DNA of 64,000 bases from Oligoflexales bacterium (GTDB lineage: Bacteria; Bdellovibrionota_B; Oligoflexia; Oligoflexales; JAPPIL01): positions 608,001-672,000 of the forward strand of contig OZ244057.1 in assembly GCA_965215515.1 (NCBI GenBank), written 5' to 3'. Both the position numbers and the translations under genes were made by a program. Shown here one piece after another: positions 1-51,514 of the stretch. The first letter of the stretch is position 1. Each line of letters begins with the position of its first letter. A model generated the notes under the pieces. It worked only from the letters and a program-made list of their open reading frames with translations, was not told where the DNA came from and did no database searches.

Positions 1-306
1 GACATAATCAAGATTCGTAGTGTTGGCTGTGGCTACTATAACCGCGCTACCAACACTTACGAGCTACAGATCAACGGGTTTGCCCCGAACAGCCACATCC
101 TCAGGCCAGAGAAGGACATCGGAGCGAATAACGACTATGTGATCTATCACAAAAGTCCCTATGCCAGAGGCTTGCAGCAAGTCGGTGTCGGTCATCTCAT
201 GAGCGGAGACAACGCAGGTCTAGTGCAACTTGAGTGGGACATCTATGGCAACACACACATCTACCTCAACCTGTCACGGGGTAAAACAGAAAGGAGGACA
301 GCCTAG
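1..306 (+). CDS. Hypothetical protein, 5'-truncated by the window; paralog of the next ORF
   Basis: Frame +1 is open from base 1 to TAG at 304-306 (DIIKIRSVGCGYYNRATNTYELQING...VGVGHLMSGDNAGLVQLEWDIYGNTHIYLNL); not in the ORF track because it has no start in the window. Confidence 0.7.
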   Translation, partial: DIIKIRSVGCGYYNRATNTYELQINGFAPNSHILRPEKDIGANNDYVIYHKSPYARGLQQVGVGHLMSGDNAGLVQLEWDIYGNTHIYLNLSRGKTERRTA

Positions 307-371
307 TCTAAATCTACGCTGGGAAGATTGTAAGGGGAAGTTCAGCTTAAATCTTAACAGTGAGGTATCGT

Positions 372-716
372 ATGCAAAACAAAACCAAGAACGAAACTCT
401 TACTCTTGGTTGGCTTGATCCGAGAGACAACAGCGTCAATCACGCCGGAGTTAGCTTCTACAACCCTACCTACGGGGAGTATCTGCTGAAGATTGACGAA
501 GAACCAAGCGAAAAACAATACTTCCTTAAACCCTCCTCTAGTGAGGGCGAGCACATTACCTACCGCATGGAGCTTGTGCTTAAACGTAAAGACGGACGCT
601 TCCTAAAACGTCAACGTGTTGGCACTGGATATAGCAACGCAGAAACAGATGGCAATGTGCTTATCAACTACGGCTCGAAATTCAAAACTCTAGTGCTTTA
701 TCTGAGAAATAAGTGA
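372..716 (+). CDS. Hypothetical beta-rich protein (ICE-associated)
   Basis: GAGGT SD before ATG at 372; overlaps the start of the pilin-like gene; shares its pattern with ORF 1-306. Confidence 0.7.
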   Translation: MQNKTKNETLTLGWLDPRDNSVNHAGVSFYNPTYGEYLLKIDEEPSEKQYFLKPSSSEGEHITYRMELVLKRKDGRFLKRQRVGTGYSNAETDGNVLINYGSKFKTLVLYLRNK

Positions 717-1003
717 ACTCAAAAAAATTATGGGTAGTTTATCTTTCATGGTTTGCTGACACAGCTCTAGCGCAGTTTTGGGGTGGGAGTGGCTTTGAGG
801 GTAAGATTAGATCGTTTACCGACAACCTGATGTCAGTCATTTTACCGGCGGTTGCCATACTTGGCTTACTTTACGCAGCTATGCTCGCTATCAGCGGTGA
901 TGAAGGTGCAAAAAAACGCATGATCCTTGTGGTGGTGGCAAGTGTGATCGGATTTCTTGCTCCCCTGATCATTCGCTGGTTTCAATCAGCTGCTGTTGGA
1001 TGA
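713..1003 (+). CDS. VirB2/TrbC-like pilin
   Basis: 96 aa; signal-like N-terminus plus two hydrophobic helices joined by a short charged loop (GDEGAKKR); first in a virB2-B3-B4 order. Confidence 0.7.
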   Translation: MNSKKLWVVYLSWFADTALAQFWGGSGFEGKIRSFTDNLMSVILPAVAILGLLYAAMLAISGDEGAKKRMILVVVASVIGFLAPLIIRWFQSAAVG

Positions 1004-1004
1004 C

Positions 1005-1322
1005 ATGATGGGAATCAACACTTCAGAGGTGCAGCGAAACTTAGATGCAAGGTTTAAGATCGGGGGTATTGAAGCCCTCGATCTACTGATAGCTCTGATA
1101 TGCAGTGCGATTATGAATCTGTTCTTCGGTGGCACAGCACTAGAGATTCCTCTAGTGCTTGGTTGTCCAGCACTCATTCTTGCGGGTTTTTACTTCGGTA
1201 AAAGGGGAAAACCAGAAAAATTTATGGTTCATCTTATTCACTTTTATTTAGAAGCGGGATTTTTCTCAGCAGGAGCAGAGCCAACAAAGTCTCTGCAAAT
1301 GCGAAGGAAGATTTATGCGTAG
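1005..1322 (+). CDS. VirB3-like membrane protein
   Basis: About 105 aa, two TM helices, lies between the pilin and VirB4 and overlaps the VirB4 start. Confidence 0.65.
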   Translation: MMGINTSEVQRNLDARFKIGGIEALDLLIALICSAIMNLFFGGTALEIPLVLGCPALILAGFYFGKRGKPEKFMVHLIHFYLEAGFFSAGAEPTKSLQMRRKIYA

Positions 1323-3738
1323 CCTCGCTAGTGAATTGGAGTTCTGGCACTTCGATGAAGACCTAATGGTTTTTAAAGATGGCTCACTCGGTGCAGGTTT
1401 TAAGCTGGCAGGGTTTGATATTACCTGTGCTACAGAGCAGGCTATCAATCAGATGAACAGAGGGCTGGAAAATTTGTTGATCTCTGCTGATGAGGGAATG
1501 AGGCTGCAAGTGTTTTACAAGCTGACACCGAATGTAACTGATCTTATAGATCAGCATCAAAAACTGTCTGGTTCTGTTACTGGTAATTATCAGCGAATTG
1601 CTGCTGCTCGTGTTAGGTTTTATCTCCAAAATCAAACTGACAAGAAATACTTTGTGCCTAACATTTTCTTTTTCATCCGTAGTAGACCCTATGCACTGAA
1701 AAAACAAAGTTTATTCGCATCAGATAAACAGTTTCAGCGGATTTCAAGAGAAGAGTTTGCTCGAAGGAAAGAGAGATTTCTCCGCTCTGTAAAGGGTATA
1801 GAGTCAGGTCTTGCTTCAGCGGCACTTGCTCCTAGCAGACTTAAACACGAGGAATGGTTCAATCTCATATTTGAATACCTGAACCTTGATCGTACAGAAA
1901 GGATCGGAGCAAGTTGTTACAAAGAGCCGCAAAGCTTTCTCAATCCCTCGGTCAGTGAACAGCTCACATTGACTGATTTCATTTGGGATAAGGACGCGAT
2001 AACGCTCGGCACATACATGTTTCGCACCATCACCCTTGCCACGCTGCCTGAAGGGCAGACATATGCAGCAATGGCTAACATGTTCGCTGCCGTGCCGTTT
2101 CATTTTTGGCTGAGCCAGTCCGTTCATCTGCTAGATCAGGCAAAGGCAAGGTCATCGCTGGAGATGAAACGCAGGATAGCACACTCAATGGCTTCGGGTA
2201 GCAAAAATGTTAGTGACTTAGATTCAGAAAACAAACTCGGACAGATCGAAGGCTTACTGGAGAATTTACTAGAGGGTTCAGAAAAGCTCGTATCATCTGA
2301 TTTCAATGTCATCATCTGGGGAAGAACCAAAAGTGAGCTAGACGATAAGACAGATGAAATCCTAAAAACCTTTCGCACATTGAATCAGGCAGAAGGGTTA
2401 CAAGAAACACTAGCAGGTAAAGAAGCTTTTTTTAAATCTATCCCCGGTGCTTGTCTAGGGATGCGGCACAAGAAGATGAAGTCCAGCAATGCTGTGCATC
2501 TGATGCCTGTCTTTGCTAGCTGGGCAGGTAATCCTAAACCAGTGTGTCTGCTGCCGACAAGAGATGGGCGGTTATTCTCGCTCGATCCCTATGCAGACCA
2601 CTTACCAGCTTGGAACGGTATCGTATTCGGCAGCTCAGGCAGTGGTAAAAGCTACACGATCGTGCAGTTGATGGCGATGTTTTACGGTAAGGTAAGCAAA
2701 GAAAACAGACCACGTATTGTCTGGATTGATAACGGTGCATCTTCAAAAAGACTAGTTGAGATATTAGATGGTGAGTTTTTAGACCTCGATTTGAACTCAG
2801 GTCTGTGTCTTAACATGTTCGATTTGAAAGAAGGAGAGATAACACCAAGTCCAGAGCGGATTCGTACAGTCTTAGCTGTCCTTGAGATGATTCTAAAAGA
2901 CGAAGATAAAAAAGCTCTCGGTAAGCGGGAGAAAGCTTTACTGGAAGAGCAAGTGCATAAGGTCTATGAGGATGCAAGTGGAAAGATACCTACTTTGTCA
3001 GATTTGAAAGAGTTGTTGGATAAACACAAAGATGCACAGATACGAAAGTTCGGTGAAATACTCTACAGCTGGACAGGAACATCAGCTTATGGACAGATGC
3101 TCGATGGACAAACCAACGTCAAACTCTCTAAAGACCTTGTTTCTATAGAGGTGCAGCATCTGAGCAACTATTCAGATCTGAAAGATGTCCTATTACTTCT
3201 TCTGACCTCTTACATTCAAGATGTGGCATCGTCTGATATTGGCAGGGAGTATCTGCTGATCATTGATGAGGCGGAGCGTCTGTTTCAGTCAGAGTTAGCA
3301 AGGCAAGTGGTAATTACCTGTTATCGCACTTGGCGCAAGTTCAAAAGCGGCATCTGGTGTTTGAGTCAGAACTACAAAGACTTTATGGCAGATAAAGCTC
3401 TTCGTGATGCTCTGATGACCAACACGACTAGCGTTATCATTCTGCGGCAGAGCAAGATTGATTGGAGTGATTTCAAAAAGACGTTCGATTTTAACGACAC
3501 ACAAGTGGAGCGTATCAAAAATCTGACAATCAAAAAGGGAGAATACAGTGAATTTTATTATCTGCAAGATGAGAACGAAGCGATCTTACGGCTTGTTCCT
3601 GAACCATTGAGTCACTGGTTTTCTACCTCAGATGCTAACGACAAGACCATGATTGCTAGTACAGAAAAACAGAATCCGAGTATGAGTAAGTTAGATGTTC
3701 TTAAATTGCTGGCTTCTCAACCTAAAAACAGGGGGTAA
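1315..3738 (+). CDS. virB4: VirB4/TraC-family T4SS ATPase
   Basis: 807 aa; Walker A GSSGSGKS, IDNGAS motif, Walker B LLIIDEA, R..RK...G...LSQ motif. Confidence 0.9.
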   Translation: MRSLASELEFWHFDEDLMVFKDGSLGAGFKLAGFDITCATEQAINQMNRGLENLLISADEGMRLQVFYKLTPNVTDLIDQHQKLSGSVTGNYQRIAAARVRFYLQNQTDKKYFVPNIFFFIRSRPYALKKQSLFASDKQFQRISREEFARRKERFLRSVKGIESGLASAALAPSRLKHEEWFNLIFEYLNLDRTERIGASCYKEPQSFLNPSVSEQLTLTDFIWDKDAITLGTYMFRTITLATLPEGQTYAAMANMFAAVPFHFWLSQSVHLLDQAKARSSLEMKRRIAHSMASGSKNVSDLDSENKLGQIEGLLENLLEGSEKLVSSDFNVIIWGRTKSELDDKTDEILKTFRTLNQAEGLQETLAGKEAFFKSIPGACLGMRHKKMKSSNAVHLMPVFASWAGNPKPVCLLPTRDGRLFSLDPYADHLPAWNGIVFGSSGSGKSYTIVQLMAMFYGKVSKENRPRIVWIDNGASSKRLVEILDGEFLDLDLNSGLCLNMFDLKEGEITPSPERIRTVLAVLEMILKDEDKKALGKREKALLEEQVHKVYEDASGKIPTLSDLKELLDKHKDAQIRKFGEILYSWTGTSAYGQMLDGQTNVKLSKDLVSIEVQHLSNYSDLKDVLLLLLTSYIQDVASSDIGREYLLIIDEAERLFQSELARQVVITCYRTWRKFKSGIWCLSQNYKDFMADKALRDALMTNTTSVIILRQSKIDWSDFKKTFDFNDTQVERIKNLTIKKGEYSEFYYLQDENEAILRLVPEPLSHWFSTSDANDKTMIASTEKQNPSMSKLDVLKLLASQPKNRG

Positions 3739-3740
3739 CA

Positions 3741-4436
3741 CTGCAAAAGAAAGCTATTGGATTGTTACTAGTCTTTTCTCTTACTTCCTCTCCTGCACAT
3801 AGTTTCTGGGGAGATGGGGGTGCAGGGTGGGTACAGATACCATATCTGGTGAAAATTCTACTTGAGAACTACAAACGCTATCAGCAACTCAAGCTGATGA
3901 TGCAGCAAGCAAGAAGATCGGGTGATTATTTTAGGACAGTTCATCAAGGGTTAGAAAACATCACAGGTCTTTTAGACAGCTTGCCAATCACTGATCAGGG
4001 GGTACTTAAGGATTTACGAAGTTTTAACGGGTCACTCAAAACCATATCGCAAATCTACGGAAAAATACCCAGATCACCGGAAGAAGCACTGCATAGGCTG
4101 CATGACCAAACCGCGGCTGAATCACTACAGATGGTGAATTCATTTAAGGATTACTCGAAGGCACAGGAAAGCAACTCGCAATCGCTCAGGATTCAGAGCC
4201 AATCAGCTTCACCTAAAGGAGCTGCAAGGGCTACCGCGGTTTCCAATGCGATGATTTTGGAAAGTATCAATCAACTGATCCGCTTGCAAAGTCAAAGCCT
4301 GAAAATGCAAAGTGAGCAGCTAGCTATGTTGAATAGGCAGGATAAGAAAACTATCGCCTCCTATCAGGAGGTTGATAAAAGTATAGGCAGTGCCTTCAAG
4401 AATTTCAAACGCCAAGAAAAATTCGTAAAATTTTAG
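3741..4436 (+). CDS. VirB5/TrbJ-like secreted helical protein
   Basis: Signal peptide followed by a Gln-rich helical body; sits between virB4 and virB6. Start is uncertain (in-frame CTG 3741 or TTG 3762). Confidence 0.55.
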   Translation: MQKKAIGLLLVFSLTSSPAHSFWGDGGAGWVQIPYLVKILLENYKRYQQLKLMMQQARRSGDYFRTVHQGLENITGLLDSLPITDQGVLKDLRSFNGSLKTISQIYGKIPRSPEEALHRLHDQTAAESLQMVNSFKDYSKAQESNSQSLRIQSQSASPKGAARATAVSNAMILESINQLIRLQSQSLKMQSEQLAMLNRQDKKTIASYQEVDKSIGSAFKNFKRQEKFVKF

Positions 4437-5303
4437 ATGTTCGACCAGTTGGTAGGGGTAGCAAAAGATATTCGGGGGGAGACACTCGAACTTTACTGGT
4501 TACTTTTAACTCCGTTGGTGCTGTTACTCATCATACTGGAGTTTTTCAAGTATCAGAAAGACAGTATAGATGTTTTTGATATTATCAGACGAGTTGTCAT
4601 CTCGATGGTGCTGCTGTTTTCTTTTGAATATACGATCAATGCCCTTTCTACGATTGGGGATGGGATCGTTAGCAAAATAGATAAGACCGCTGATGTTTGG
4701 GATGTATTAAAAAATCTGGGGCCGAATTACCAAGACTCTTCCAGTGGGCTATTTGATATAAGAGGACACATTCTTTACACACTGGCACTGCTTTCTTATC
4801 TCATCGCCTACTTAGGATTTTTTGTCACCGATGCACTTGTTCACTTTGTCTGGATCGTTCTGTATACGGTATCACCCCTGATGATTTTAGCTTACGTTGC
4901 TAAAGCAACAGCTAACGTGACTGCGAACTTATACAAAGGGCTAGTTAAGGTAGTTATCTGGAAAATTATGTGGACGATTCTTGGTGCGCTGCTACTGAAA
5001 TTAGCCATGACCCCCCAGACAGGAGAGGACATGGAAGGCTACTTAGTAGCGATGATTACTAATCTGTGTATTGGACTCAGTATGCTTTTTATTCCTATCG
5101 CAACTCGTTCACTAATCAACGATGGATTGGAGAAGGCAGCATCAGCATTAGCCGTTGCTCCAGCAATAGCTGCGGTGAATACAGCAAAGGTCTACACCAA
5201 GAAAGCGGCTAGACGAGGTTCTGCGAAAGCATCGGGGACAGAACAACCAACTACTAAATCACAGGATAATCCTGTCAGAGAGAGTGTCGACAGGTTTAGG
5301 TAA
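4437..5303 (+). CDS. VirB6/TrbL-like polytopic membrane protein
   Basis: 288 aa, five to six TM segments, Ala/Lys-rich tail, operon position. Confidence 0.7.
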   Translation: MFDQLVGVAKDIRGETLELYWLLLTPLVLLLIILEFFKYQKDSIDVFDIIRRVVISMVLLFSFEYTINALSTIGDGIVSKIDKTADVWDVLKNLGPNYQDSSSGLFDIRGHILYTLALLSYLIAYLGFFVTDALVHFVWIVLYTVSPLMILAYVAKATANVTANLYKGLVKVVIWKIMWTILGALLLKLAMTPQTGEDMEGYLVAMITNLCIGLSMLFIPIATRSLINDGLEKAASALAVAPAIAAVNTAKVYTKKAARRGSAKASGTEQPTTKSQDNPVRESVDRFR

Positions 5304-5340
5304 GAGCACATAAATCAATTATTTTGGAGGAAACATTGCT

Positions 5341-5922
5341 GTGAAAAAAGACTCTACACTTCGTGTGTGGACTGACGTTAACTCATTATTAAGAACTCAT
5401 AAACTTCTCAATCTAGGACTTATTTCAGTTTGTATATTACAGCTGTTCATCATTGCTACGATGTATTTTGCTGATCCTATCGTGGTCATTAAAGAAGATG
5501 GTAAACAACGCTACTTTGCGGGACGTAAGACTAGCTTACCTATATCTGAGGAGGCTGTTGAAGAATTCGTTGAAGGTTTTTTGCGCGTCCGCTACGAGTG
5601 GAACAAACTCGACCCCAAGGCAAAGCAGAAGAGCTTATCGCCAATCGTTACAGATGGATTACAGAAGAAGATGTTCAAGCTATTGACCCACCTCAAGGAT
5701 AAGGAGTTTCAGGGCAAAGAGACTTCGCAGGCAATCGTCAATATCAAAGTTAACGTTACCAAAGAGAAGGTAGTGGCAAGTTTTGATAAGCTTTTACGGA
5801 TTGAAGGAGTGCCGATTCCAGTGCCGACAACAGTGTCACTCAACATAATCAAAGGCACTCCCAACATCTGGAATCCAATAGGCTTGCTTGTCAATGGGGT
5901 GATCGAACACCAGTCTAAATGA
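5341..5922 (+). CDS. VirB8-like protein
   Basis: Single N-terminal TM, periplasmic domain ending in the NPIGLLV motif typical of the VirB8/TrbF/TraK C-terminus. Confidence 0.75.
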   Translation: MKKDSTLRVWTDVNSLLRTHKLLNLGLISVCILQLFIIATMYFADPIVVIKEDGKQRYFAGRKTSLPISEEAVEEFVEGFLRVRYEWNKLDPKAKQKSLSPIVTDGLQKKMFKLLTHLKDKEFQGKETSQAIVNIKVNVTKEKVVASFDKLLRIEGVPIPVPTTVSLNIIKGTPNIWNPIGLLVNGVIEHQSK

Positions 5923-6653
5923 TGAAAAGCCTTATCTTGGTAAGCGTCTTGCTCTGTCACCATTCGGTGGCATGGGCAAGCGGGATCAGAACAGCTTATG
6001 TCAACGATACCAAGATGCAACCCATCTATCTAAAGATGGGTAAAGCATCGGTACTGAGGTTTGCAGAAAAACCCAAGAAAGTGGTTATCGGTAATCAAAA
6101 CTACTACTCGATTGAGTTTATCGACAACGATTTAACTATTCAACCACTAGGTAGAGTAGAAACGAATCTGTTTGTCTATACACCTTATCATACCTACGGG
6201 TTTATTCTGCGGGTTTGTCACAGCTGCCGTTATGACGATTTAGTTTATGTGAAGTGGAAGTCCAAGTATCAACCACCTCCTAAAATCAAAAAGGCGAAGA
6301 TCGTACCCGGATTTAAAGCAATTGGACTCAAGTTCAATGTGGGTGGAGGTATTTCAGCTACCGTTATCAAAACCACGGCTGATACTACTAGGCAGTTGCG
6401 GTTTGTTGATCTGCAATTGAAGAACAGTGGGAGAACGAAGATCAACATCACATCGGCAAGAATCGTAGCTACTCGCAGAAATGTTCCACTACCAAATCAA
6501 GGGTATGTTATCGAACAAGATTTTCTGAAGGCTGGTGAGATTACGAAGGCCAGATTATTTCTATCTGCAAAGGAGACAAGAGATTTTACCGTGAACGTAT
6601 TTGTAAATGCACACAAAGGAAGAGTCATCATTGCTCAAGGGTATCTGAGATGA
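5919..6653 (+). CDS. VirB9/TrbG-like outer-membrane core protein
   Basis: Signal peptide; N.L.IQP...TNLFVYT...YGF motif. Confidence 0.8.
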   Translation: MMKSLILVSVLLCHHSVAWASGIRTAYVNDTKMQPIYLKMGKASVLRFAEKPKKVVIGNQNYYSIEFIDNDLTIQPLGRVETNLFVYTPYHTYGFILRVCHSCRYDDLVYVKWKSKYQPPPKIKKAKIVPGFKAIGLKFNVGGGISATVIKTTADTTRQLRFVDLQLKNSGRTKINITSARIVATRRNVPLPNQGYVIEQDFLKAGEITKARLFLSAKETRDFTVNVFVNAHKGRVIIAQGYLR

Positions 6654-7585
6654 AGTATGCAAAGCAGATGCGGGCGTTTTTCCTCAAAAAAGAGGGTGGC
6701 AAGGAGGTTATCGACAGAAAAAGATTTTTTGGCGCGGTGAGTGTGATCTTGTTGCTTGGAGCTTTTTCTCTGCTCTTTCCCAAGACAGGTAGAGATTCCA
6801 GTGTTATTATTAACTCGGCAGAGCCGATAGATAGGGACAACTCTGAAGAGGTGGTAACACAGTCGTCTTCACCTAAAGTAACTGGGATGCTGCAAGCATC
6901 CCAGCAAAGGGGATATGAGAGTTTACATAGGATACATGCAAAGCCAGCCCCTAGAAAGGCGCAGAAGATAGAATACAAAGCTCCGCAAGTTATCGAGAGA
7001 AAAGGGACAGATAGTTTTACGGATAAACTGCCAGTAGGAACAAACCTCATAGGTAAACTCTTGACTGGCATAGATACCAGAGAGGTTAAACAATTCTACA
7101 AGGTGTTTCTTCCTTATGGAGGCAGAAGTAAACACGGTGGCAGTATACCGAAAAATTCAATTCTTTTTGGCACGGTTAGTTATCCCGGTAAAGGGAAGAA
7201 GGTGTTTATGCAATTCTCAAAAGCACTGTTGCCTGATGGAAGAGAGGTTGAATTGAAAGCACAAGCATTAAATGCAAAAGATTATTCGCCGGGATTAGTA
7301 GGAGAGTTTCACAGCAAGGCAATCGAAAGAGTTGCCTCGACTCTGGGTCTGACAATGGTATCGGCAATTACCGATACTCTCACCGAGAAACAAGTACTTG
7401 GCACAGAAGGGACTGTTACACCAAAAGCAACAACCAAGAATGCACTCTATCAGGGAATCTCTAAAGCAAGTGAGATGGAAGCACAGAGACAGATGGCAGA
7501 ACTCGGTGATGTGCAAGAATATGTCACGATCCCAGCAGGTCAAGAGCTGATCGTCAATCTTGTGACAACCTATCACAGTGAATAA
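6650..7585 (+). CDS. VirB10/TrbI-like protein
   Basis: N-terminal TM, low-complexity linker, C-terminal domain LPVGT..IGKLLTGID...LPDG...GLVG...TIPAGQELIV. Confidence 0.8.
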   Translation: MKYAKQMRAFFLKKEGGKEVIDRKRFFGAVSVILLLGAFSLLFPKTGRDSSVIINSAEPIDRDNSEEVVTQSSSPKVTGMLQASQQRGYESLHRIHAKPAPRKAQKIEYKAPQVIERKGTDSFTDKLPVGTNLIGKLLTGIDTREVKQFYKVFLPYGGRSKHGGSIPKNSILFGTVSYPGKGKKVFMQFSKALLPDGREVELKAQALNAKDYSPGLVGEFHSKAIERVASTLGLTMVSAITDTLTEKQVLGTEGTVTPKATTKNALYQGISKASEMEAQRQMAELGDVQEYVTIPAGQELIVNLVTTYHSE

Positions 7586-8265
7586 GGCCAAAAATGGTGA
7601 AGTGCTGGAGAACTTTGTTCTCATGCTGCTGTATTGCCCCTCTGTCTTTTTGCGGGTTTGTTTCTTCGGTCTGAGGCGTGTTGATTTCAAAGATTTAAAT
7701 ACGTGGTCATGGATATTTACTGTCACTGGAAGCCTTGCAATAGTGCTGTTCTTGACGTTGAGCTATCAGCAAGCGATGAACCTGTATTTGCTGCTGTTGG
7801 GTGCTCTCTCAGTGATTGGGCTATTCGTCTATGGCTTCAAACCTTTTAGAAAACACGTTCTGTTTCAAAAAGCCATAAAGCGATCTGGCTTAAAAAGTGC
7901 TATCGGGGAAATGCCAAAGATAAAAGCCATCATCCCTATCGGAGAAAATCGCTCTAAGGTGGTTGTGGAGACATTGGGTGTTGGCCTCAATAAGTTTAAA
8001 GCACAAAGTGATAGTTTAACCGCTGGTTTTCGTCAAAAAATCGAAAGTATTGCTCATGGCAAAGACATGGGCAAGGTTGAGATTGTTCTGTGTGAAGGTG
8101 ATCTGCCGAAGATGGTAGGGTTTCATGAGTTGTATGCCCACGTTAAAGAGCCGTATTCGTTCATCGTTGGGCAGAGCATAAAGGGTGTGGTAGTGCAGAA
8201 AATTCAATCTCTGCCTCACTTACTTATATCTGGAGCGACAGGTGGCGGTAAATCGGTATTCTTCC

Positions 8266-8314
8266 GCTTCCACTCGCTTTGCTTGTGGAAGCTGTTTTGC
8301 CGCTTTCTAGCTCC
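8266..8314 (+). repeat. Short inserted element: hairpin GCTTCCAC/GTGGAAGC plus the GCTGTTTTGCCGCTTTCTAGCTCC motif
   Basis: Perfect 8-bp stem with a TCGCTTTGCTT loop; tail matches the unit of the 51349-51514 array; adds non-FtsK residues right after Walker A. Confidence 0.75.
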
Positions 8315-8375
8315 TATGCTTTCACTGCTGAAAAGCTCGCCACACATTCAACTGTATCTCTTGGACTTGAAGCGT

Positions 8376-8419
8376 GGAGCGAGCAAGCGGCAGACAAGCC
8401 CCATGAGCGTAGCGAATGG
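8376..8419 (-). repeat. Short inserted element, inverted copy: CCAT-TCGCTACGCTC-ATGG plus GGCTTGTCTGCCGCTTGCTCGCTCC
   Basis: Reverse complement has 2 mismatches over 25 nt to the array unit; causes the frameshift. Confidence 0.8.
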
Positions 8420-9028
8420 AGGTCAAGGAATTTGGAGCACTGCTCAACGTCAGGATAGCAGCAGATGAGACGGAGGCGACGAACATTCTGGAGTCTCTTG
8501 TTGCTGAGATGCACCGCCGCTATGAAATCTTGGAGCAAAGTGGACACAAGTCGATCGACCCTGCGAGGGACAAGCTAGATTTGATCGTGGTGGGTATAGA
8601 TGAAGCGGCAGCGTTGTTTGGCAAAGGAGCAAGCAAATCTGCTCGTGAGTGCATGGGCGAGCTAGCTCGTTTGGCTAGAGCGGCTGGAATTCACCTTATA
8701 CTCTCCACACAAAAGCCAGTGAAAGAAGCCATTAGCACAGAGATATTGGATAACTTATCGGGACGAATGACCTTCAGGATGGTTTCAACTGCGGCTTCAA
8801 ACGTGGCGATGGGCGGAAGCTACGCTCAGAAGTTACCCGCAATCAAAGGACGCGGCATGTGGAGCAATGGCAGCGAACAGAAGCAGGTGCAAGCACCTTA
8901 TGTTGATGACGAATTGATTGAAGTAGAACTGGAGGTGATTAATCAAGAGTTTGCAGATGGCATCAGGAAAAATTTCAATTCACTTTTGGAGGTAACGGAT
9001 GATGACAAAATATCAGAGACAGCTAACC

Positions 9029-9796
9029 ATGTTTGATACTGAAACGATCCCGACAAAGGTTGTCTTAAGTGAACGTGATCTCAAATTGATGTGTTCTTTG
9101 TTTGAGAACAAGATCGCTAGCAGAAATCAGATAAACGAGCAGTTTTTTCATGGTGTCTCTATCCACACCGTGAACAGACGGCTGCGCAAGCTCGTATGTC
9201 TTGGGTTGATAACGAGAGTTACAGCGATGGTGAGTAGCAGGGTAATTTGTGGCTACTGCTTGAGCCGAAAGGGTCTCACCAAAATTAAACCGATATTGCC
9301 GTATAAGGTAAAAACCAAGACAACCTTAAGTGAATGCCCGTTACATGACATCGCCTTGAACGACATCCGCCAAGCATTTGAGGCGAAGGACGCAGTGCAA
9401 CGCTACTACACCGAGAATGTTCTGCAAACATGCACGGGCTTCAAATCAGACAGGCAGTTTAGGCCCTTTGTGGAACTGAACAGTGACGCAATGGCTGAAG
9501 TAAATACAAGAATCGGGGTGCTGAACTTGGCCATTGAGTTTGATACGACGGTCAAAAGTAAAGATCGTTACCGCCAAAAGGTTAATGCTTACTATGGCAA
9601 GCGAGGGATTGACGGGGTGTTATACATCTGTGCAAGCAAGCACATTTTAAACATCTTGCTCAAGATAGATAAGGAGGTAGCAGATCGCCATCGTCGTAAA
9701 CCGAAAGTGTATTTAGCTATGTTGAGCGATGTCATTTGTGCGCTGGACGAAATGACATTTACGAATGCCATCGGGTACATCTTCCGTGTTCGCTAG
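9029..9796 (+). CDS. Replication-relaxation family (Replic_Relax-like) relaxase
   Basis: N-terminal wHTH (LSERD...RRLRKL...GLI), HD motif (PLHDI), (P/S)DA...AIEFDTT.KS..RY..K...Y nuclease-like motif; overlaps the FtsK stop. Confidence 0.75.
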   Translation: MFDTETIPTKVVLSERDLKLMCSLFENKIASRNQINEQFFHGVSIHTVNRRLRKLVCLGLITRVTAMVSSRVICGYCLSRKGLTKIKPILPYKVKTKTTLSECPLHDIALNDIRQAFEAKDAVQRYYTENVLQTCTGFKSDRQFRPFVELNSDAMAEVNTRIGVLNLAIEFDTTVKSKDRYRQKVNAYYGKRGIDGVLYICASKHILNILLKIDKEVADRHRRKPKVYLAMLSDVICALDEMTFTNAIGYIFRVR

Positions 9797-9965: not shown

Positions 9966-10412
9966 ATGAAACAGAAGGTGATGGTGATGTGCTTGGTGTT
10001 GAGTGCCGCGTTAGCGGCTGGATGTGCAACGTTGCACAGGTCTATGTCTGTGGGTGTGGGCATAGGCATAGGGACAGGAGTAGCGGCAAACATGGCAGCA
10101 ACGGGGGGCAAGGGTGCGATGAAGGGCGCACTCTTCGGCGCGGTGATCGGTGCTGCTAGCAGCTACCTGATTCACAGTGCTTTGGAGAAGAGAGATGCCA
10201 AGACGAGGAAGCAGACGCTACTTAACCTCGATAAGTTCTCTGTCTCCACACCAACAGGCAGGCGAGGCGTGCAGGACTTTCGGCTGTCCGCTCCTGACGT
10301 TGACAAAGAATGTTTCGATTGGGAGGTGCGAGGCAATCAGCTAGTGCAACAACATTGCGTGTGGACGATCAGGGGTAACGCCACATGGCAACTAAACACA
10401 AGGAGGCGATGA
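9966..10412 (+). CDS. Lipoprotein with glycine-zipper region
   Basis: AGGAGG SD; lipobox LAAGC; GVGIGIGTGVAA...GALFGAVIGA. Confidence 0.75.
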   Translation: MKQKVMVMCLVLSAALAAGCATLHRSMSVGVGIGIGTGVAANMAATGGKGAMKGALFGAVIGAASSYLIHSALEKRDAKTRKQTLLNLDKFSVSTPTGRRGVQDFRLSAPDVDKECFDWEVRGNQLVQQHCVWTIRGNATWQLNTRRR

Positions 10413-10727
10413 ATGAGTGCAAAACAGAAGGAAATGTGTAGGGTGCTGTTGGACAAGGAGCAGGCTAGCCTCGTTAGCGGGCTAGTCGCCAAGTTGCGAG
10501 GTGACTACTGCAAGGTAGACAGCTCGAAGCTGCTGAACCAGATCGTGGCGATCTTCTTTCAGAAGTACGCGGCGCAGGAGTATGACAGCATCGCCACAAC
10601 GTTCTTCGACAAACGCGGCTACCTGCGCAACCTCATCAACACCGCCCCGATCGAGGACATAGACAAGTCTATCAAGACTTACTTAGGCAAGGGGCGCACG
10701 GTGAAGGTGCGAAAGCAACAGCCTTGA
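10413..10727 (+). CDS. Hypothetical protein
   Basis: AGGAGG SD; directly follows the lipoprotein stop; 104 aa. Confidence 0.65.
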   Translation: MSAKQKEMCRVLLDKEQASLVSGLVAKLRGDYCKVDSSKLLNQIVAIFFQKYAAQEYDSIATTFFDKRGYLRNLINTAPIEDIDKSIKTYLGKGRTVKVRKQQP

Positions 10728-10767: not shown

Positions 10768-11076
10768 ATAACAAATGAAAATTCGGGAAGGTTTTGTAAA
10801 AAATGCGGCAAATTTAAACTCTGGGATTGTTTCAGCAAGAAGCCTGGTGGTCGGAACGGGCGGGACAGTGCTTGTAAAGACTGCCGCAAGCGGGCACAGG
10901 TCAGCAGGAGAAAGAAATTGCGTGCTAACAAGCACATGGTGATTGATGGTGAGAATTTGGTAATTAAACACCGTATCGTTGGCGACCCATTGAAAGTAGA
11001 TATAGATGGCATCGCCATGATTATCGCTAACGCCTACCACAACAGGAGTGAGGACTTATGTATAAAAAGCGCATGA
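10768..11076 (+). CDS. CxxC-CxxC zinc-finger protein with an ATA start (non-canonical or mutated)
   Basis: 102-codon open frame after an AAAGGAG SD: TNENSGRFCKKCGKFKLWDCFSKKPGGRNGRDSACKDCRKR...; overlaps the recombinase start; missed by the ORF track. Confidence 0.65.
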   Translation: MTNENSGRFCKKCGKFKLWDCFSKKPGGRNGRDSACKDCRKRAQVSRRKKLRANKHMVIDGENLVIKHRIVGDPLKVDIDGIAMIIANAYHNRSEDLCIKSA

Positions 11077-12482
11077 ACCATAAGGAGATGAAGGCTCTGG
11101 TTTTGAAGGTCGTGGCGGATTGCCGCGGCCTTGCTGAACAGCATATCAAGAGCTGGCAGCCGTTCAATAAGGAGTGGCCAACGATTGAAGGAGCGGTTTA
11201 TTTGCGACTGTCTGATGATACACAAGTAGCCGTTGAGCGTGGATCGTTGGAGCAGCAAATTCACATCGCCATCTCTGAAGCACAGTATCGTTCGGAACAG
11301 GAGCGGATGAACTACAGGATTACCGAGTTCTACATTGAGCCAGGCATCACGGGCACGCATGGCAATCGCCCTCTGTTGCCGCTTTCTCGCTCCACATCAG
11401 GCTACAGCACAACATCAGCCTCAAAAAACATGGCAATAGCAATTACACCAGCGAACAAGAAGCGAGCTAGCAAGCGAGCGTTACAAAAAGGCGGCGTAGC
11501 GGTTCTTCAGGCTGTGCCAGAAATACGATTGCGAGATATGCATCAGAGGACTGCCGTTCAACCCTAACGATCCTGCTTCGATCCTACAACTTGATCAGCT
11601 AGCAGCTTTTGCTGAGTTCGAGTCTCGAACAACCTCAAAGCGTATCAGGGAAAGCAACCACTCTGCGTTGCTAACTTCAGGGAAATTCAACAGTCACTAT
11701 CCGCTGTTGGGGTTTGATGCGGTAAAAAACGAGCATGGTGAACATACTGGCATTTACAAGCCCAACAAGGCAGAACTGAAGCAGGTTGAGTGGATTATGT
11801 CATCGTTCCTGCGAGTGGACAGATACAAGACTCTACTTGATTGGTGTAGGGGGAAGAATATCAAGAGTAAGCGAGGTAGAGACTTTACATTAGTTAGCAT
11901 CAGGGGTCTGCTGACAAACCCTCGCTATATCGGCAAGTGGTATCGCAACAAGCACAACGCTGGCAAGAGACAGAGCAAGCTCATGCCCTATGAGCGTTAT
12001 ACTGAGGTTAAGTTGGATCATGGCTGCGTCATATTGACACGCGTTTGAGCTTCCTACTCGAAGGCGATAAAATGGAGATAGCACAGTCTTTCAGAGATGA
12101 GTATGAGAGACAGTTTTTAGACCTGAAAGACGAAGAGAGGGAGCTTATCGACAGGAAGAGGCAGCTTCAGTTACTGCAAAGACAGCTCGATGAAGCACAA
12201 GATGCTAGTAAGAGTGGGTGGTTAGATCATGCCAACAAGGCCATCAGCTGCATTAGGAAGAAGGATTTGATCTCGCTCAAATCTGCCTACAAGCAGCTCT
12301 TTCAGAAGATCATCGTTCACCCTCTGGATAGCACAAGATTGCAGTTGGAGTTTATCTTTAAGAGTGCGTCCACATCCATCCGCATGGGTGTGGACAAATT
12401 CTGTCCCTCGGTAGATTTGGTGGAGCATATCGGAATCGAACCGATGACCTCGGCAATGCCATTGCCGCGCTCTACCAACTGA
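11058..12482 (+). pseudogene. Large serine recombinase (integrase), fragmented
   Basis: YLRLS catalytic motif and EPGITGT..NRP; in other frames IRLQHNISLKKHG and DPASILQLDQLAAFAEFESRTTSKRIRE, recombinase domain LLTNPRYIG, and a C-terminal coiled coil; frameshifts near 11372-11499 and about 12032. Confidence 0.85.
12368..12395. repeat. Inverted repeat GTCCACATCCAT-CCGC-ATGGGTGTGGAC (tRNA terminator or att-site arm)
   Basis: 12-bp stem with one non-Watson-Crick position, about 22 nt beyond the tRNA CCA end. Confidence 0.5.
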
Positions 12483-12493
12483 GCTAATGCCCC
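12418..12493 (-). tRNA. tRNA-Ala (GGC)
   Basis: Reverse complement GGGGCATTAGCTCAGTTGGTAGAGCGCGGCAATGGCATTGCCGAGGTCATCGGTTCGATTCCGATATGCTCCACCA; 76 nt, G3:U70 pair, encoded CCA. Confidence 0.97.
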
Positions 12494-12554: not shown

Positions 12555-13526
12555 CTAAATTCCTCTGCGAAAGAGCTGCAGAAACTTTGAATCCAACGAT
12601 AACAGTAGATTTGAGCGTTTTGTCAAAGTTTTTTTATAAGCTTCTAGAGTGCGAGAAAATTCGTAGAACTCAGGGTCTTTGCCGAGCTGTTTGGCATAGA
12701 TGTCGATCGCTTGAGCCTCGGCTTTACCCATAATTATCTCGCTGCGACGCAAGGCATCGGATTCAATGGCTTTGAGGTCTTTGTTTATCTTACCCGTGAT
12801 TTTTGCACTTTCACCCTTGCCAATCGATTTAATTTTTTCGGCAATACGCAAACGCTCAGAAATCATGCGTTGATAAACTTTCTCCTGCACACTTTCAACG
12901 TAAGCAATACGGCGGAGCTGTACGTCCACTAACTCAATACCAAAAACTTCCAACTCTTCTTGTGCACGCTTGATGATAATGCGACTGAGCTCCTCCCGCC
13001 CGACTTCGATGGCTTCAATCTCACCCATAATTTCTTCGTCGATGTTTTCTTCGCCCTCTTCCTCCCGCTGCCGCTGCTCAGCACTGCGTTTGACCCGCTC
13101 TTCAAGAATTTGATTGTCGTTGCGTACCGACTCAACCAGATTATGACTGGAAATTGTGTCACGGGTAATACCATCGATAATACCGTTGAGCTTGTTCTGT
13201 GCCCCATATTCGTTGATAACAATCTGCGCATACTTAACGGCATCAGCAATCCTCCACCGCGCCGTGGTATCGACAAGAATATACTTTTTGTCTTTAGTCG
13301 GAATCTGCTCAGGATCGCCATCCCAGGTCAACAAACGCTTCTCGTAAAAACGCACATCCTGAATAAACGGCAGTTTCCAATGCAAACCAGACTCGGTGAT
13401 CGGGGCACTGACAATACGCCCGAACTGCACAATCAAAGCCTGATGCTCCTCCCGCACCCGATAACTGGCACTGTAAACAACTATTACCACCAACAGCGCG
13501 GCAACCATATACACACTACTTTTCAC
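12555..13526 (-). CDS. hflC: FtsH protease modulator HflC
   Basis: SPFH domain, GLHWKLPFIQ, TKDKK, RMISER, DPEFYEFSRTLEAY; GTG start after a GGAG SD. Confidence 0.93.
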   Translation of the reverse strand: MKSSVYMVAALLVVIVVYSASYRVREEHQALIVQFGRIVSAPITESGLHWKLPFIQDVRFYEKRLLTWDGDPEQIPTKDKKYILVDTTARWRIADAVKYAQIVINEYGAQNKLNGIIDGITRDTISSHNLVESVRNDNQILEERVKRSAEQRQREEEGEENIDEEIMGEIEAIEVGREELSRIIIKRAQEELEVFGIELVDVQLRRIAYVESVQEKVYQRMISERLRIAEKIKSIGKGESAKITGKINKDLKAIESDALRRSEIIMGKAEAQAIDIYAKQLGKDPEFYEFSRTLEAYKKTLTKRSNLLLSLDSKFLQLFRRGI

Positions 13527-14649: not shown

Positions 14650-14878
14650 GCACTGCACTCCTTCGCGACGAAACCACACACCCGCCACCGACAAGGCGAG
14701 CACCCCGTTTAAACAAAACACAGCAAGCTTGGCAAGCTCCAAATACTCGCGGACGAGATTCAACTTCCCACCGACCTACACCCCGATGCACACCGCTACC
14801 CCACAATTGCAACAACAGATTGCCATACAGAACGCAACGCTTTAGAATGACAACAGGCAGTGCGGTGAACACAGAGCG

Positions 14879-15796: not shown

Positions 15797-15917
15797 GCAA
15801 ACCAAAGCTATTTGTTTGACACACAAGACACCGCCGTCCAATTGTGAAATTACTCCAAAACCTAAACCCCTAAGCAAACCAAAGCTATCGCTTGACATAC
15901 AAGATGTCGCTGTCCAA
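15772..15917. repeat. Tandem duplication (77-bp period) spanning convergent gene ends
   Basis: 40 identical bp at 15772-15811 and 15849-15888, followed by about 30 bp of diverged similarity. Confidence 0.85.
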
Positions 15918-51348: not shown

Positions 51349-51514
51349 GCTTGTTCGCTTGCTAGCTCCGCTAGGCTTGTTTGCCGCTTGCTAGCTCCGC
51401 TAGGCTTGTTTGCCGCTTGCTAGCTCCGCTAGGCTTGTTTGCCGCTTGCTAGCTCCGCTAGGCTTGTTTGCCGCTTGCTAGCTCCGCTAGGCTTGTTTGC
51501 CGCTTGCTAGCTCC
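51349..51514. repeat. Perfect tandem array of the 29-bp unit GCTAGCTCCGCTAGGCTTGTTTGCCGCTT
   Basis: Five identical full copies (51361-51505) plus partial copies on both sides; no spacers. Confidence 0.95.

Follow-up and report, generated by a model that had tools for sequence, protein, structure and literature searches.

According to passages of PMC3548315 and of the 2025 T4SS review PMC12857230, all Gram-negative T4SSs use VirD4-type coupling proteins, and the FtsK-like coupling proteins of the TcpA type occur in Firmicutes alone, in some of their MPF_FA systems. According to PMC5357655, relaxases of the MOB_C family correspond to PF13814 and, in streptococcal IMEs, are paired with VirD4 and never with TcpA. 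A passage of PMC12857230 links MOB_C to PD-(D/E)XK nucleases.

We analysed a stretch of 64,000 nt, hereafter the window, from Oligoflexales bacterium GCA_965215515.1 (contig OZ244057.1, 608,001-672,000). Our preferred reading, to which we assign a probability of roughly three in four, is that the genes at 713-9796 belong to a decayed copy of a Bdellovibrionota-type ICE family, of which they form the mating-pore and DNA-processing module, with a TcpA-like ATPase in the place of VirD4.

Gene content of the module

All ORFs of the row are on the + strand, and adjacent ORFs abut or share 4-8 nt (Table 1). A first-pass annotation had described a compact row virB2-B3-B4-B5-B6-B8-B9-B10-FtsK-relaxase with mostly overlapping or abutting genes, and both the ORF coordinates and the family assignments agree with that order. 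Two conserved ORFs precede the pilin gene. Ten related loci and two copies from the same genome have an orfA homologue upstream of the module, and profile searches with Pfam and NCBIfam returned no family match. The orfB gene occupied the same position in 25 related loci; Pfam matched 0/8 of its homologues and its Atlas search scores were below 0.8.

Table 1. Features of the module and its surroundings, in window coordinates
Feature	Coordinates	Strand	Remarks
orfA, small conserved ORF	1..306	+	5'-open; start left of the window
orfB, 118 aa, conserved	360..716	+	immediately 5' of the pilin gene
VirB2/TrbC-type pilin	713..1003	+	PF18895, PF04956
Putative VirB3/TraL-like small membrane protein	996..1322	+	between pilin and VirB4 genes, overlapping stops/starts
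VirB4 ATPase, 807 aa, intact ORF	1315..3738	+	PF19044, PF11130, TIGR02746
Putative VirB5/TrbJ-like protein	3762..4436	+	position in row
Putative VirB6/TrbL-like polytopic membrane protein	4437..5303	+	position in row
VirB8/TraE-like protein	5341..5922	+	language-model neighbours only
VirB9/TraK homologue, outer-membrane core complex	5919..6653	+	sub-threshold HMMs, AF2 and Foldseek
VirB10/TrbI homologue	6650..7585	+	PF03743
FtsK/TcpA-superfamily ATPase gene, broken	7578..9036	+	two ORFs, 7578-8468 and 8416-9036, in different frames
MOB_C-type (Replic_Relax) putative relaxase	8999..9796	+	wHTH and putative C-terminal nuclease-like domain
Glycine-zipper lipoprotein	9966..10412	+	after relaxase gene, conserved position
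o15, small conserved ORF	10413..10727	+	position kept in related loci
Large serine recombinase (LSR) pseudogene	11058..12482	+	three frames, internal part gone
tRNA-Ala(GGC)	12418..12493	-	ARAGORN; convergent with recombinase, overlapped by its 3' end

The pilin matched PF18895 T4SS_pilin (E 2.6e-6, 27.8 bits versus a cut-off of 26.6) and PF04956 TrbC (3.2e-5), and VirB4 matched PF19044, the TraG P-loop family (3.1e-20), and PF11130 (1.6e-14). Three smaller proteins were given putative identities from their position, their size and single weak matches. The VirB3-like ORF matched TIGR02762 TraL (0.004) and the VirB5-like ORF TIGR02780 TrbJ (2.2e-4), with Pfam matching 0/8 homologues of either, while PF04610 TrbL matched one of the eight homologues of the VirB6-like protein (2.2e-4). 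The nearest Atlas clusters of the VirB8-like protein were PF05309 TraE (48%) and PF04335 VirB8 (22%), with a score of 0.95. Its profile had a sole, marginal match in the PDB (PrgL, E 0.18), and Pfam matched none of eight homologues.

The first-pass annotation had also recognized a VirB9/VirB10 core of the diderm type, and this assignment held for both proteins. VirB10 matched PF03743 TrbI above the cut-off (8.8e-13, 49 bits versus 35); its profile matched only VirB10 of 6gyb in the PDB, marginally (E 0.15). For VirB9, CagX matches were obtained with all nine sequences, i.e. the window copy and eight homologues (3.5e-6 to 2.3e-3, all below the cut-off), and TIGR02781 matched at 1.6e-6. An AF2 model of this protein (pLDDT 87) was then compared with Foldseek, and the top eight matches were VirB9, TraK or DotH chains of T4SS outer-membrane cores (E 3e-11 to 8e-7; top structures 7spb, 6gyb, 7oko, 7muc, 8rt6 and 7o3t). 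The VirB9 alignment profile found no match in the PDB, and hhalign comparison of the VirB8, VirB9 and VirB10 profiles with single R388 proteins gave probabilities below 4%.

Beyond the relaxase gene, Gly-zipper families matched the lipoprotein in the window copy and in 6/6 homologues; our guess is that it might be VirB7-like or an exclusion factor. No credible family match was obtained for o15, either with the window copy or with its homologues.

The FtsK/TcpA-type ATPase

The ATPase gene of the window matched FtsK_SpoIIIE (2.2e-12). The FtsK-type family named in the first-pass annotation therefore stood; the split of the gene into two frames had been missed. DNA alignment with the two intact paralogs revealed a 42-nt in-frame insertion at 8269-8310 and a second insertion of 37 nt at 8380-8416 that shifts the frame. 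A programmed frameshift was rejected because a single ORF encodes the ATPase in the two paralogs and in 21/22 homologues, and because inserted repeats coincide with the break; no stop codon interrupts 21 of the 22 ATPase genes of related loci.

The intact paralog P0121 matched PF01580 (8.3e-24, 84.7 bits) and retains its Walker A motif. Its top match in the PDB was pCW3 TcpA (6o1z, 1.8e-24), with FtsK at 7.5e-18. The alignment with TcpA covered residues 92-419, extending far past the ATPase core, and the N-terminal segments are hydrophobic. The best plasmid matches of the ATPase were tcpA genes of the pCW3 family, at ~25% identity across 90% of the length. Phylogenetic analysis separated the family from three VirD4 proteins (support 100/99). 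The Bdellovibrionota proteins formed a clade of their own (80/84) that was not nested in TcpA, the deep order being unsure in a tree with long branches, and TcpA, TcpB and an Enterocloster protein grouped apart from this clade. In this tree the ATPase lies on the FtsK/TcpA side and not with VirD4, probably as a sister-type clade to TcpA.

The module was compared with 30 related loci from Bdellovibrionota MAGs. A search for syntenic loci had been recommended in the earlier annotation, and its outcome was uniform: a TcpA-like gene follows VirB10 in 22/22 of the loci that extend that far (VirB4 identity down to 45%), the other eight being contigs that end earlier. A relaxase gene comes after the TcpA-like gene in 21 of the 22, and the 22nd contig stops inside the ATPase gene. 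The same order was kept in a further locus of a subfamily with a VirB4 identity of 31%. As the order is kept across all of these loci, including the 31% subfamily, we conclude that the hybrid architecture is conserved and is no accident of the window locus. The protein families, the ATPase tree and the conserved order thus agree with the proposed hybrid of a diderm VirB core and an FtsK/TcpA-type ATPase.

The operon had been described as having no virB11, virB1 or VirD4-type gene, and Pfam searches found none of these families among the 22 ORFs of the window. A virD4/MOB pair just to the left had been named as a result that would count against the hybrid; the 15 ORFs in the 20 kb left of the element contained no VirD4, VirB11, VirB1 or canonical relaxase, and the element itself has no canonical relaxase either. 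The conserved adjacency of the ATPase gene to VirB10 and to the relaxase gene, together with the absence of VirD4, suggests that the ATPase is the coupling protein. A different arrangement is conceivable in which a VirD4 supplied in trans serves the T4SS and the FtsK-like ATPase replaces VirB11, or segregates or resolves the excised element. The FtsK-like gene does stand exactly at the virB11 position of R388, and the genome has one VirD4-like gene (TrwB_AAD_bind, 1e-52), at 1.668 Mb. However, this sole VirD4 belongs to another cluster at a distance of ~1 Mb, which is F-like and decayed (TraE, TraK, TraF, T2SSE) and within which the window VirB4 found no match. In addition, T2SSE, T4SS-DNA_transf and TrwB_AAD_bind matched 0/75 cargo and flank ORFs of the related loci, which thus include neither VirD4 nor VirB11. 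The hydrophobic N-terminal segments, the long TcpA alignment and the constant pairing of the ATPase gene with a relaxase gene also argue against a supply in trans, which we consider improbable. We favor the TcpA-like ATPase itself as the coupling protein.

Relaxase candidate, recombinase and copies of the element

The relaxase candidate matched PF13814 above the Pfam gathering score (3.2e-7, 31.1 bits versus 25.3), which bears out the earlier assignment of a replication-relaxation relaxase after the FtsK-type gene. NCBIfam MobC_subf scored 20.9 against a cut-off of 200. The protein belongs to the known family MOB_C and not to a new one. Its AF2 model (pLDDT 91) contains alpha-beta-beta-beta-alpha-beta elements at residues 114-211, and the putative catalytic residues H116, D117, E139, D163, E180 and K194 are invariant across 18 sequences; D163, E180 and K194 would be the candidates for a PD-(D/E)XK-like site. 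With the whole model, the top Foldseek match was FokI, which was weak (E 5.6e-4, TM 0.24). Both a profile search of the PDB and a wide structural search matched the wHTH domain alone. No oriT was identified.

In the window copy of the LSR, piecewise matches cover positions 2-106, 140-317 and 444-591 of 598, and a Recombinase-domain fragment is the sole remaining family match. Two paralogous LSRs are intact (590 and 592 aa) and contain both Resolvase (PF00239) and Recombinase (PF07508) domains. On its right side the element is bordered by the tRNA-Ala(GGC) gene. The genome (2.18 Mb) contains one complete and one near-complete paralog of the module at other places, as well as several diverged copies and remnants of the element. 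Four copies each terminate at a different gene, namely tRNA-Ala (window), tRNA-Pro, tmRNA and tRNA-Val. The intact paralogous LSRs and these four ends support the earlier suggestion that the element may be an ICE moved by a large serine recombinase, the LSR of the window being fragmented. As both its integrase and its ATPase genes are pseudogenes, the window copy is not capable of moving on its own. A complete sister copy beside tRNA-Pro, at 1.63 Mb (1630.7-1647 kb), has intact genes for the integrase, relaxase, coupling ATPase and VirB4 and could do so.

The left end of the element and its att sites were not found. When the far ends of the four copies were searched for a direct repeat of the 3' part of the tRNA, chance-level matches alone were obtained (9-12.5 points). 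No empty tRNA-Ala site was present in three relatives, where AbiE-like genes as well as remnants of relaxases and recombinases occupy the site; the left flank had no DNA match and the left border was not fixed. Contigs of four runs contained no excision joint across the intact copy, and contigs drop rare circular forms. Contigs with loose ends, at the tRNA-Pro end and at L075:15904, correspond there to other repeats of the genome or to sequence that is absent from it. In an independent marine-metagenome run from another study (X1), the interior of the intact copy was present at 95-99% identity and its flanks were absent.

These observations bear on a non-conjugative interpretation, in which the T4SS would serve predation or competition by releasing protein or DNA, with the Replic_Relax protein acting as a wHTH regulator or a replication factor. 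Such a role would suit hosts from a largely predatory phylum, the cargo found between VirB4 and VirB5 in some related loci (LRR, trypsin-like and RHS-type proteins) and a relaxase candidate whose N-terminal half is a plain wHTH, but the PF13814 match exceeds the Pfam cut-off and the putative catalytic residues are invariant. Moreover, a serine integrase travels with the module to four different tRNA or tmRNA ends, diverged copies and remnants are multiple, and the interior occurs without its flanks in the run of another study. We regard the non-conjugative interpretation as very unlikely.

An undescribed ICE lineage is supported, with transfer predicted from sequence. The family encodes a minimal diderm T4SS (VirB2-B6 and B8-B10, with VirB3, VirB5 and VirB6 putative), a membrane-anchored FtsK/TcpA-superfamily ATPase and the MOB_C candidate with its wHTH and putative restriction-endonuclease-like domain, followed by the lipoprotein, a small ORF and an LSR abutting a tRNA or tmRNA gene. 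In the proposed mechanism, the recombinase would excise the element from the tRNA site, after which the MOB_C protein would bind and cut oriT. A hexamer of the TcpA-like ATPase would then act as both coupling protein and DNA pump, passing DNA to the inner-membrane complex of VirB4, VirB6 and VirB8 and to the VirB9/VirB10 outer-membrane core.

VirB4 placement and relation to described systems

A VirB4 phylogeny had been proposed in the first-pass annotation as a check on the hybrid. Our quick ML search with 26 sequences placed the family in its own clade (SH-aLRT 100), outside five MPF_F references (98) and the two MPF_T references TrwK and TrbE (99), in a tree whose backbone is unresolved and whose references do not include MPF_G or MPF_I. 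The best-scoring model was TIGR02746 TraC-F-type, which matched VirB4 over its full length (1.5e-85) with 287.7 bits versus a cut-off of 567.05. TIGR00929 scored 191.9 versus 643, and VirB4 was far below the cut-off of every class-specific NCBIfam model.

It could be argued that the locus is an ordinary member of MPF_T or MPF_F with an architecture that is already catalogued. Its gene order is that of MPF_T R388, yet VirB4 falls outside both sampled reference clades, a placement that has to be read with the unresolved backbone in mind. An F-type affiliation is suggested by the best HMM and by the plasmid matches, as most of the VirB4 matches listed, out of at least 5000 matching plasmid records, are F-type TraC; to our knowledge, F-type systems likewise lack VirB11. 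However, both HMM scores given above are well below their cut-offs, the closest plasmid VirB4 among the matches listed is only 24% identical, and Pfam found none of the F-specific families TraW, TraU, TraN, TraF, TraH and TrbC among the 22 ORFs of the window. TcpA is, in addition, restricted to Firmicutes MPF_FA in the passages of PMC3548315 and PMC12857230. Ordinary membership in either class therefore appears doubtful at best. Full-text searches of the literature that combined Bdellovibrio-type hosts with T4SS, VirB4 or TcpA listed no paper describing such a system.

The presence of an FtsK/TcpA-like ATPase in a conserved diderm T4SS of the VirB2-B10 kind contradicts the VirD4-only rule for Gram-negatives, and this pairing suggests that the coupling protein was replaced at least twice. 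We see about even odds that the family is a separate, unnamed diderm MPF lineage in which an FtsK/TcpA translocase and a MOB_C nuclease replaced VirD4 (and VirB11), independently of the TcpA/MOB_T switch in Firmicutes. If so, it would be the first natural double-membrane T4SS with an FtsK-like pump, and would raise the question of whether such a T4SS passes double-stranded DNA. It would also provide a test case for the docking of a coupling ATPase on VirB10, for an FtsK-like pump feeding a VirB9/VirB10 channel and for DNA hand-over by MOB_C nucleases. In the poorly studied Bdellovibrionota, the analysis points to an abundant ICE family whose serine integrases target tRNA and tmRNA genes.

Among described systems, R388 Trw and Agrobacterium VirB (MPF_T) share the order pilin-B3-B4-B5-B6-B8-B9-B10 (R388 annotation) and the VirB10/TrbI domain. 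The N-domain of the VirB9 model superposes on R388 TrwF with a TM of 0.73-0.78 and an rmsd of 1.5-1.6 A over 95-96 aligned columns. Unlike these systems, the window family has no VirB1, VirB11, VirD4 or MOB_F/MOB_P relaxase, and its FtsK-type ATPase stands after VirB10, where R388 has VirB11. F-type systems (MPF_F) resemble the family in TraC, which provides the best VirB4 model, and in a two-ATPase design that lacks VirB11, but the F-specific assembly genes are missing from the window family and its order differs from that of an F-like plasmid. The closest plasmid VirB4 proteins among the matches listed are those of Myxococcus pYRE and MxC21-1 unnamed1 (24% identity, length coverage 95-96%). 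These plasmids have a similar gene row of two small ORFs followed by VirB4, whereas pYRE encodes a VirD4-type protein (TraM-recognition domain) upstream and has no FtsK-like gene annotated in the stretches viewed.

The relaxase candidate resembles the MOB_C proteins CloDF13 MobC and pAD1 TraX in having PF13814, a wHTH and a C-terminal domain in which acidic residues and a lysine are conserved. In contrast to MOB_C of the streptococcal IMEs, it is paired with a TcpA-like ATPase. The same adjacent pair of FtsK-like and replication-relaxation genes is annotated on Firmicutes plasmids (B. subtilis NZ_CP035392.1 and Thermoanaerobacterium pMU3262), where both proteins are shorter and the short stretches viewed contain no VirB9/B10-type pore genes. 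Long branches in the tree leave the position of these Firmicutes ATPases with respect to the Bdellovibrionota clade unsure. The occurrence of the same pair on Firmicutes plasmids suggests that the two genes travel as a unit.

TcpA of pCW3 (Clostridium perfringens, MPF_FA) is both the closest solved structure and the closest plasmid-borne homologue of the ATPase. pCW3 differs in that its system is monoderm, its relaxase TcpM belongs to MOB_M and VirB9 and VirB10 are absent; its TcpA is ~25% identical and falls in another clade. The two ATPases are nevertheless alike in their similar size, hydrophobic N-terminus, FtsK/SpoIIIE domain and gene position beside a relaxase gene, and each is the sole coupling-protein candidate of its system.

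Gene order and conservation of the transfer module

The window spanned G000:C1:608001-672000 of the source genome, a single contig of 2.18 Mb with 52.6% G+C. All module ORFs (713–9796) were on the plus strand and neighbours abutted or shared 4–8 nt in the ORF map, which together with family scans confirmed the row of transfer genes with abutting or overlapping starts and stops described in the first-pass annotation (Table). CagX was matched by all eight VirB9 homologues scanned (3.5e-6 to 2.3e-3), each time under the cut-off. An AF2 model of VirB9 made from 15 sequences had a pLDDT of 87.1, and its top eight Foldseek matches were all parts of T4SS outer-membrane cores (E 3e-11 to 8e-7), the top matches being F TraK (7spb), Xanthomonas VirB9 (6gyb), pED208 (7oko), DotH (7muc) and R388 TrwF (8rt6/7o3t). 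The N-domain of the model superposed on TrwF with TM 0.73–0.78. In the language-model clusters nearest to the VirB8-like protein (score 0.95), 48% of members carried TraE and 22% carried VirB8, and the sole match of its sequence profile was PrgL (E 0.18). VirB9 occurred in two forms, a long one of ~244 aa whose C-terminal domain varies and a short one of ~137 aa consisting of the conserved N-terminal domain alone.

Features of the module, its surroundings and related loci (plain numbers, window positions; G000, source genome; L numbers, stretches of DNA from the source genome or related loci)
Feature	Position	Strand	Remarks
Pilin		+	PF18895, 27.8 bits vs cut-off 26.6 (family scan)
TraL/VirB3-like ORF		+	position and one weak match
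VirB4, 807 aa		+	TraG P-loop 3.1e-20; TIGR02746 TraC-F-type 1.5e-85, yet 287.7 bits vs cut-off 567
VirB4–VirB5 gap	3738-3762		no insert
TrbJ/VirB5-like ORF		+	position and one weak match
VirB6-like ORF		+	no family match in window copy; TrbL matched by 1 of 8 homologues
VirB8-like ORF		+	no family match in window copy
VirB9		+	weak CagX match
TrbI/VirB10		+	49 bits vs cut-off 35
FtsK_SpoIIIE		+	two fragments
ATPase-gene insertions	8269-8310; 8380-8416		42 nt; 37 nt
Same insertion pair, degraded copy	G000:C1:6187-6354		~6.2 kb
Replic_Relax (PF13814) protein		+	31.1 bits vs cut-off 25.3
Glycine-zipper lipoprotein, small ORF			after module
Large serine recombinase fragments	11058-12482		after module
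tRNA-Ala(GGC), element end	12418-12493	-	overlaps 3' end of recombinase
tRNA-Pro(TGG), element end	L009:5761-5836
tmRNA, element end	L010:5043-5395
tRNA-Val(TAC), element end	L011:2783-2859
Two SPFH/Band7 genes, alpha/beta hydrolase, DnaE	12555-19376		right of tRNA
75/150-nt tandem repeat	25141-25435		62-74% matches
29-nt x 5.5 tandem array	51356-51514		perfect; between two minus-strand genes
Arrays with shared motif	G000, near 350.4, 482.3, 993.4, 1759.1, 2091.8, 2099.1 kb
Cassette left of window	L008:8603-14413		G000 596.6-602.4 kb
Cassette in upstream region	L019, L021, L024, L025, L026, L028, L031, L033, L035, L045		related loci
Sigma-70 region-4 pair	L008:19082-19941		just left of window
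Short/long VirB9 forms	L010:11491-11850; L011:8000-8359; L016, L018, L023
Apparently decayed F-like cluster	G000:C1:1662-1676 kb (L014, L015)
Interior covered by run X1	L075 2379-14674		intact copy at 1.63 Mb

VirB4 homologues at 54–88% identity were metagenome-derived and, where the source names them, belonged to the TraC/VirB4 family of Bdellovibrionota, Bdellovibrionales, Halobacteriovoraceae and Bacteriovoracia. A scan of species genomes gave 30 loci, 27 in MAGs with Bdellovibrionota-type titles and three titled otherwise (Pseudomonadota, Robiginitomaculum, Rickettsiales). When the module proteins were mapped on these loci, an FtsK-type gene followed VirB10 in all 22 that reached that position, the other eight being contigs that ended before it. 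The relaxase gene came after the ATPase gene in 21 of the 22, and the last locus stopped within the ATPase gene; the proposed order recurs in syntenic loci. No stop codon interrupted the ATPase match in 21 of the 22. Among 131 species genomes of the window's GTDB phylum, the ATPase was present at E≤1e-30 in 24 genomes (17 of 55 genera) and VirB4 at E≤1e-60 in 16. A distant subfamily in one genome, with a VirB4 31% identical, had the same order on through the ATPase and relaxase genes.

The VirB4/VirB5 junction is a cargo hot spot: in related loci the gap was variable, with up to ~4 kb of unrelated cargo such as LRR, trypsin-like and DUF285 proteins or methyltransferase, aminotransferase and GNAT genes. 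In locus L040 an RHS-repeat protein was encoded in the upstream flank, outside this junction.

The operon had been described as devoid of VirD4 and VirB11, and this held beyond its borders. VirD4, VirB11 and canonical MOB proteins were found neither among the window ORFs (family scan) nor among the 15 ORFs of the 20 kb to the left, and none of 75 cargo and flank ORFs of related loci was a VirD4 or VirB11. Two of those 15 left-flank ORFs encode small sigma-70 region-4 proteins, and others AbiEi/AbiEii and a two-component cassette. The one VirD4 of the genome (TrwB_AAD_bind 1e-52) was at 1.668 Mb in a separate, apparently decayed F-like cluster, inside which the window VirB4 as query had no match. 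TraE, TraK_C, TraF and a T2SSE ATPase accompany this only VirD4-type gene, and an AbiE pair is near.

Of 15 loci examined, at least 10 had the two-component cassette ahead of their transfer genes. It encodes a histidine kinase and a sigma-54-dependent response regulator together with a family-5 solute-binding protein and an enzyme of the YcaO or radical-SAM type. In seven cases the regulator gene was directly preceded by a sigma-54-like promoter. The binding-protein gene of the window's element seems to be split, and the other three copies in the source genome lack the cassette. It may represent peptide-signal control of transfer. In most related loci, two small conserved ORFs (orfA, orfB) and the pilin gene are preceded by genes for the two small proteins consisting of sigma-70 region 4 only, which may be activators of the transfer operon.

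Identity of the ATPase, the relaxase candidate and VirB4

P0121, the intact paralog of the window's ATPase in the same genome, matched PF01580 at 8.3e-24. Its best solved relatives were three pCW3 TcpA entries, 'DNA translocase coupling protein' (6o1z and others; 1.8e-24, residues 92–419), followed by FtsK (7.5e-18) and then EccC. A search of 72,556 plasmids with the ATPase yielded 1013 with a match, the best being tcpA genes of the C. perfringens pCW3 family (~25–27% identity over 90–98% of the length); pCW3 itself matched at 2e-18. A careful ML tree (27 sequences) separated three VirD4 proteins (the genome's own, TrwB and TraD) from every FtsK-type protein with support of 100/99, a split that together with the pCW3 TcpA structure match bears out the FtsK/TcpA-type assignment. 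The 16 Bdellovibrionota-type ATPases formed one clade (80/84); TcpA, TcpB and an Enterocloster protein made up a second (100/99) and FtsK proper the last. The branching order of the three clades was poorly supported, with long branches. The ATPase is therefore an FtsK/TcpA-type protein with a TcpA-like architecture that lies outside the TcpA clade.

The predicted replication-relaxation relaxase was upheld as a MOB_C-type candidate by its PF13814 score, this family being MOB_C in CONJscan terms (PMC5357655). MOB_C relaxases are described as akin to PD-(D/E)XK restriction endonucleases (PMC12857230). An alignment of 18 family members contained invariant F50, R61, S111, H116, D117, E139, D163, E180 and K194. 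The AF2 model (pLDDT 91.2, pTM 0.86) consisted of an N-terminal winged helix and then an alpha/beta domain. Foldseek ranked FokI first, weakly (E 5.6e-4), amid many wHTH regulators, and the wide structural search covered only residues 19–104. A nuclease fold of the modelled alpha/beta domain is plausible. In two Firmicutes plasmids a 'replication-relaxation family' gene comes immediately after a gene annotated as FtsK/SpoIIIE, so the ATPase and relaxase genes may travel as a unit.

The best plasmid relatives of VirB4 were on two Myxococcus plasmids (24% identity); at least 5000 plasmid records matched, and F-type TraC and TrhC made up most of the other matches listed. In a quick ML tree (26 sequences, 841 columns, MPF_FA outgroup, without MPF_G, MPF_I and FATA references), the 12 family VirB4s formed their own clade (100) outside five MPF_F (98) and two MPF_T references (99). 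VirB4s of Myxococcus, Thermus, Gloeobacter and Hymenobacter were on an unresolved backbone.

Lesions, copies and integration sites

The genome contains four module copies with ~70–82% protein identity and at least seven remnants. In the 1.63-Mb copy all module genes are intact ORFs, and so they are in the 0.13-Mb copy apart from a short VirB9 (N-domain only) and an absent orfA; the 0.01-Mb and window copies are degraded. Aligned to two paralogs, each a single ORF of 459–460 aa, the window FtsK-type gene was two ORFs in different frames, carrying 42 inserted nt in frame directly behind its Walker A motif and, further on, 37 inserted nt that shift the frame. The window recombinase aligned piecewise to an intact 598-aa paralog (residues 2–106, 140–317 and 444–591, three frames); intact paralogs of 590 and 592 aa had Resolvase and Recombinase domains. 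We conclude that the window copy is a decaying, non-autonomous family member.

The two ATPase-gene insertions are imperfect inverted copies of one another with 69 nt of native gene sequence between them, and the region as single-stranded DNA formed a long hairpin (-33 kcal/mol). The pair is also in the degraded ~6.2-kb copy at 94.6% identity, the genes around being just ~72–80% identical. Its motif is shared with the 29-nt array and with many tandem arrays of 27–41-nt period genome-wide, and looks like a family of short repeats. The 75/150-nt repeat, in a G+C-rich region, probably belongs to a coding sequence with internal repeats.

In all four copies the recombinase gene ran convergently 39–65 nt into the 3' part of an RNA gene, a different one in each copy. 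It is unusual for serine integrases to target tRNA or tmRNA genes. G+C rose from ~43–46% inside the module to 52–57% right of the tRNA, where the chromosome resumes. In the search for the left border, a repeat of the tRNA end was not found at the far side of the element, and the tRNA-Ala site of relatives was also filled with remnants. At a minimum the two sigma-70-like genes belong to the element, and the AbiE pair, which goes with the window copy, with that at 1.63 Mb and with two remnants, probably does so too.

Contigs of four runs placed on the intact copy contained no excision joint; their loose ends were accounted for by repeats of the same genome or by sequence foreign to it. One metagenome run from another study (X1) covered the element interior at 95–99% identity and left the flanks uncovered, which hints that the element lives in another genomic background too.

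Comparison with known systems

Gene content and conserved order support the earlier reading of a hybrid module in a serine-recombinase ICE. The family appears to be a conserved, previously undescribed ICE lineage combining a diderm VirB2–B10 pore, an FtsK/TcpA-type ATPase and a MOB_C-type relaxase candidate, in which the ATPase would stand in place of VirD4 and VirB11. Judging from gene content and conservation, the lineage would move by means of serine recombinases that target tRNA and tmRNA genes. Among the papers listed by full-text searches for conjugation, T4SS, VirB4 or TcpA in Bdellovibrio, Bdellovibrionota or Oligoflexia, outside subscription journals and supplements, none described such a system, and 'conjug' and 'type IV secretion' are absent from a comparative-genomics study of the phylum published in 2024.

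One account places TcpA homologues only in Firmicutes (PMC3548315); another limits TcpA to a subset of MPF_FA and assigns the T4CPs of every Gram-negative T4SS to the VirD4 family (PMC12857230). TcpA of pCW3 provides the nearest solved structures and plasmid homologues of the family ATPase, although the clades are separate. R388 has the same order from the pilin gene through B3, B4, B5, B6, B8 and B9 to B10, but there VirB11 stands next. The Myxococcus plasmid pYRE has a similar gene row, but with a VirD4-type gene upstream. In the streptococcal IMEs described in PMC5357655, MOB_C partners VirD4 and TcpA was never seen with MOB_C, whereas the MOB_C-type candidate of the present family is found with a TcpA-like ATPase.
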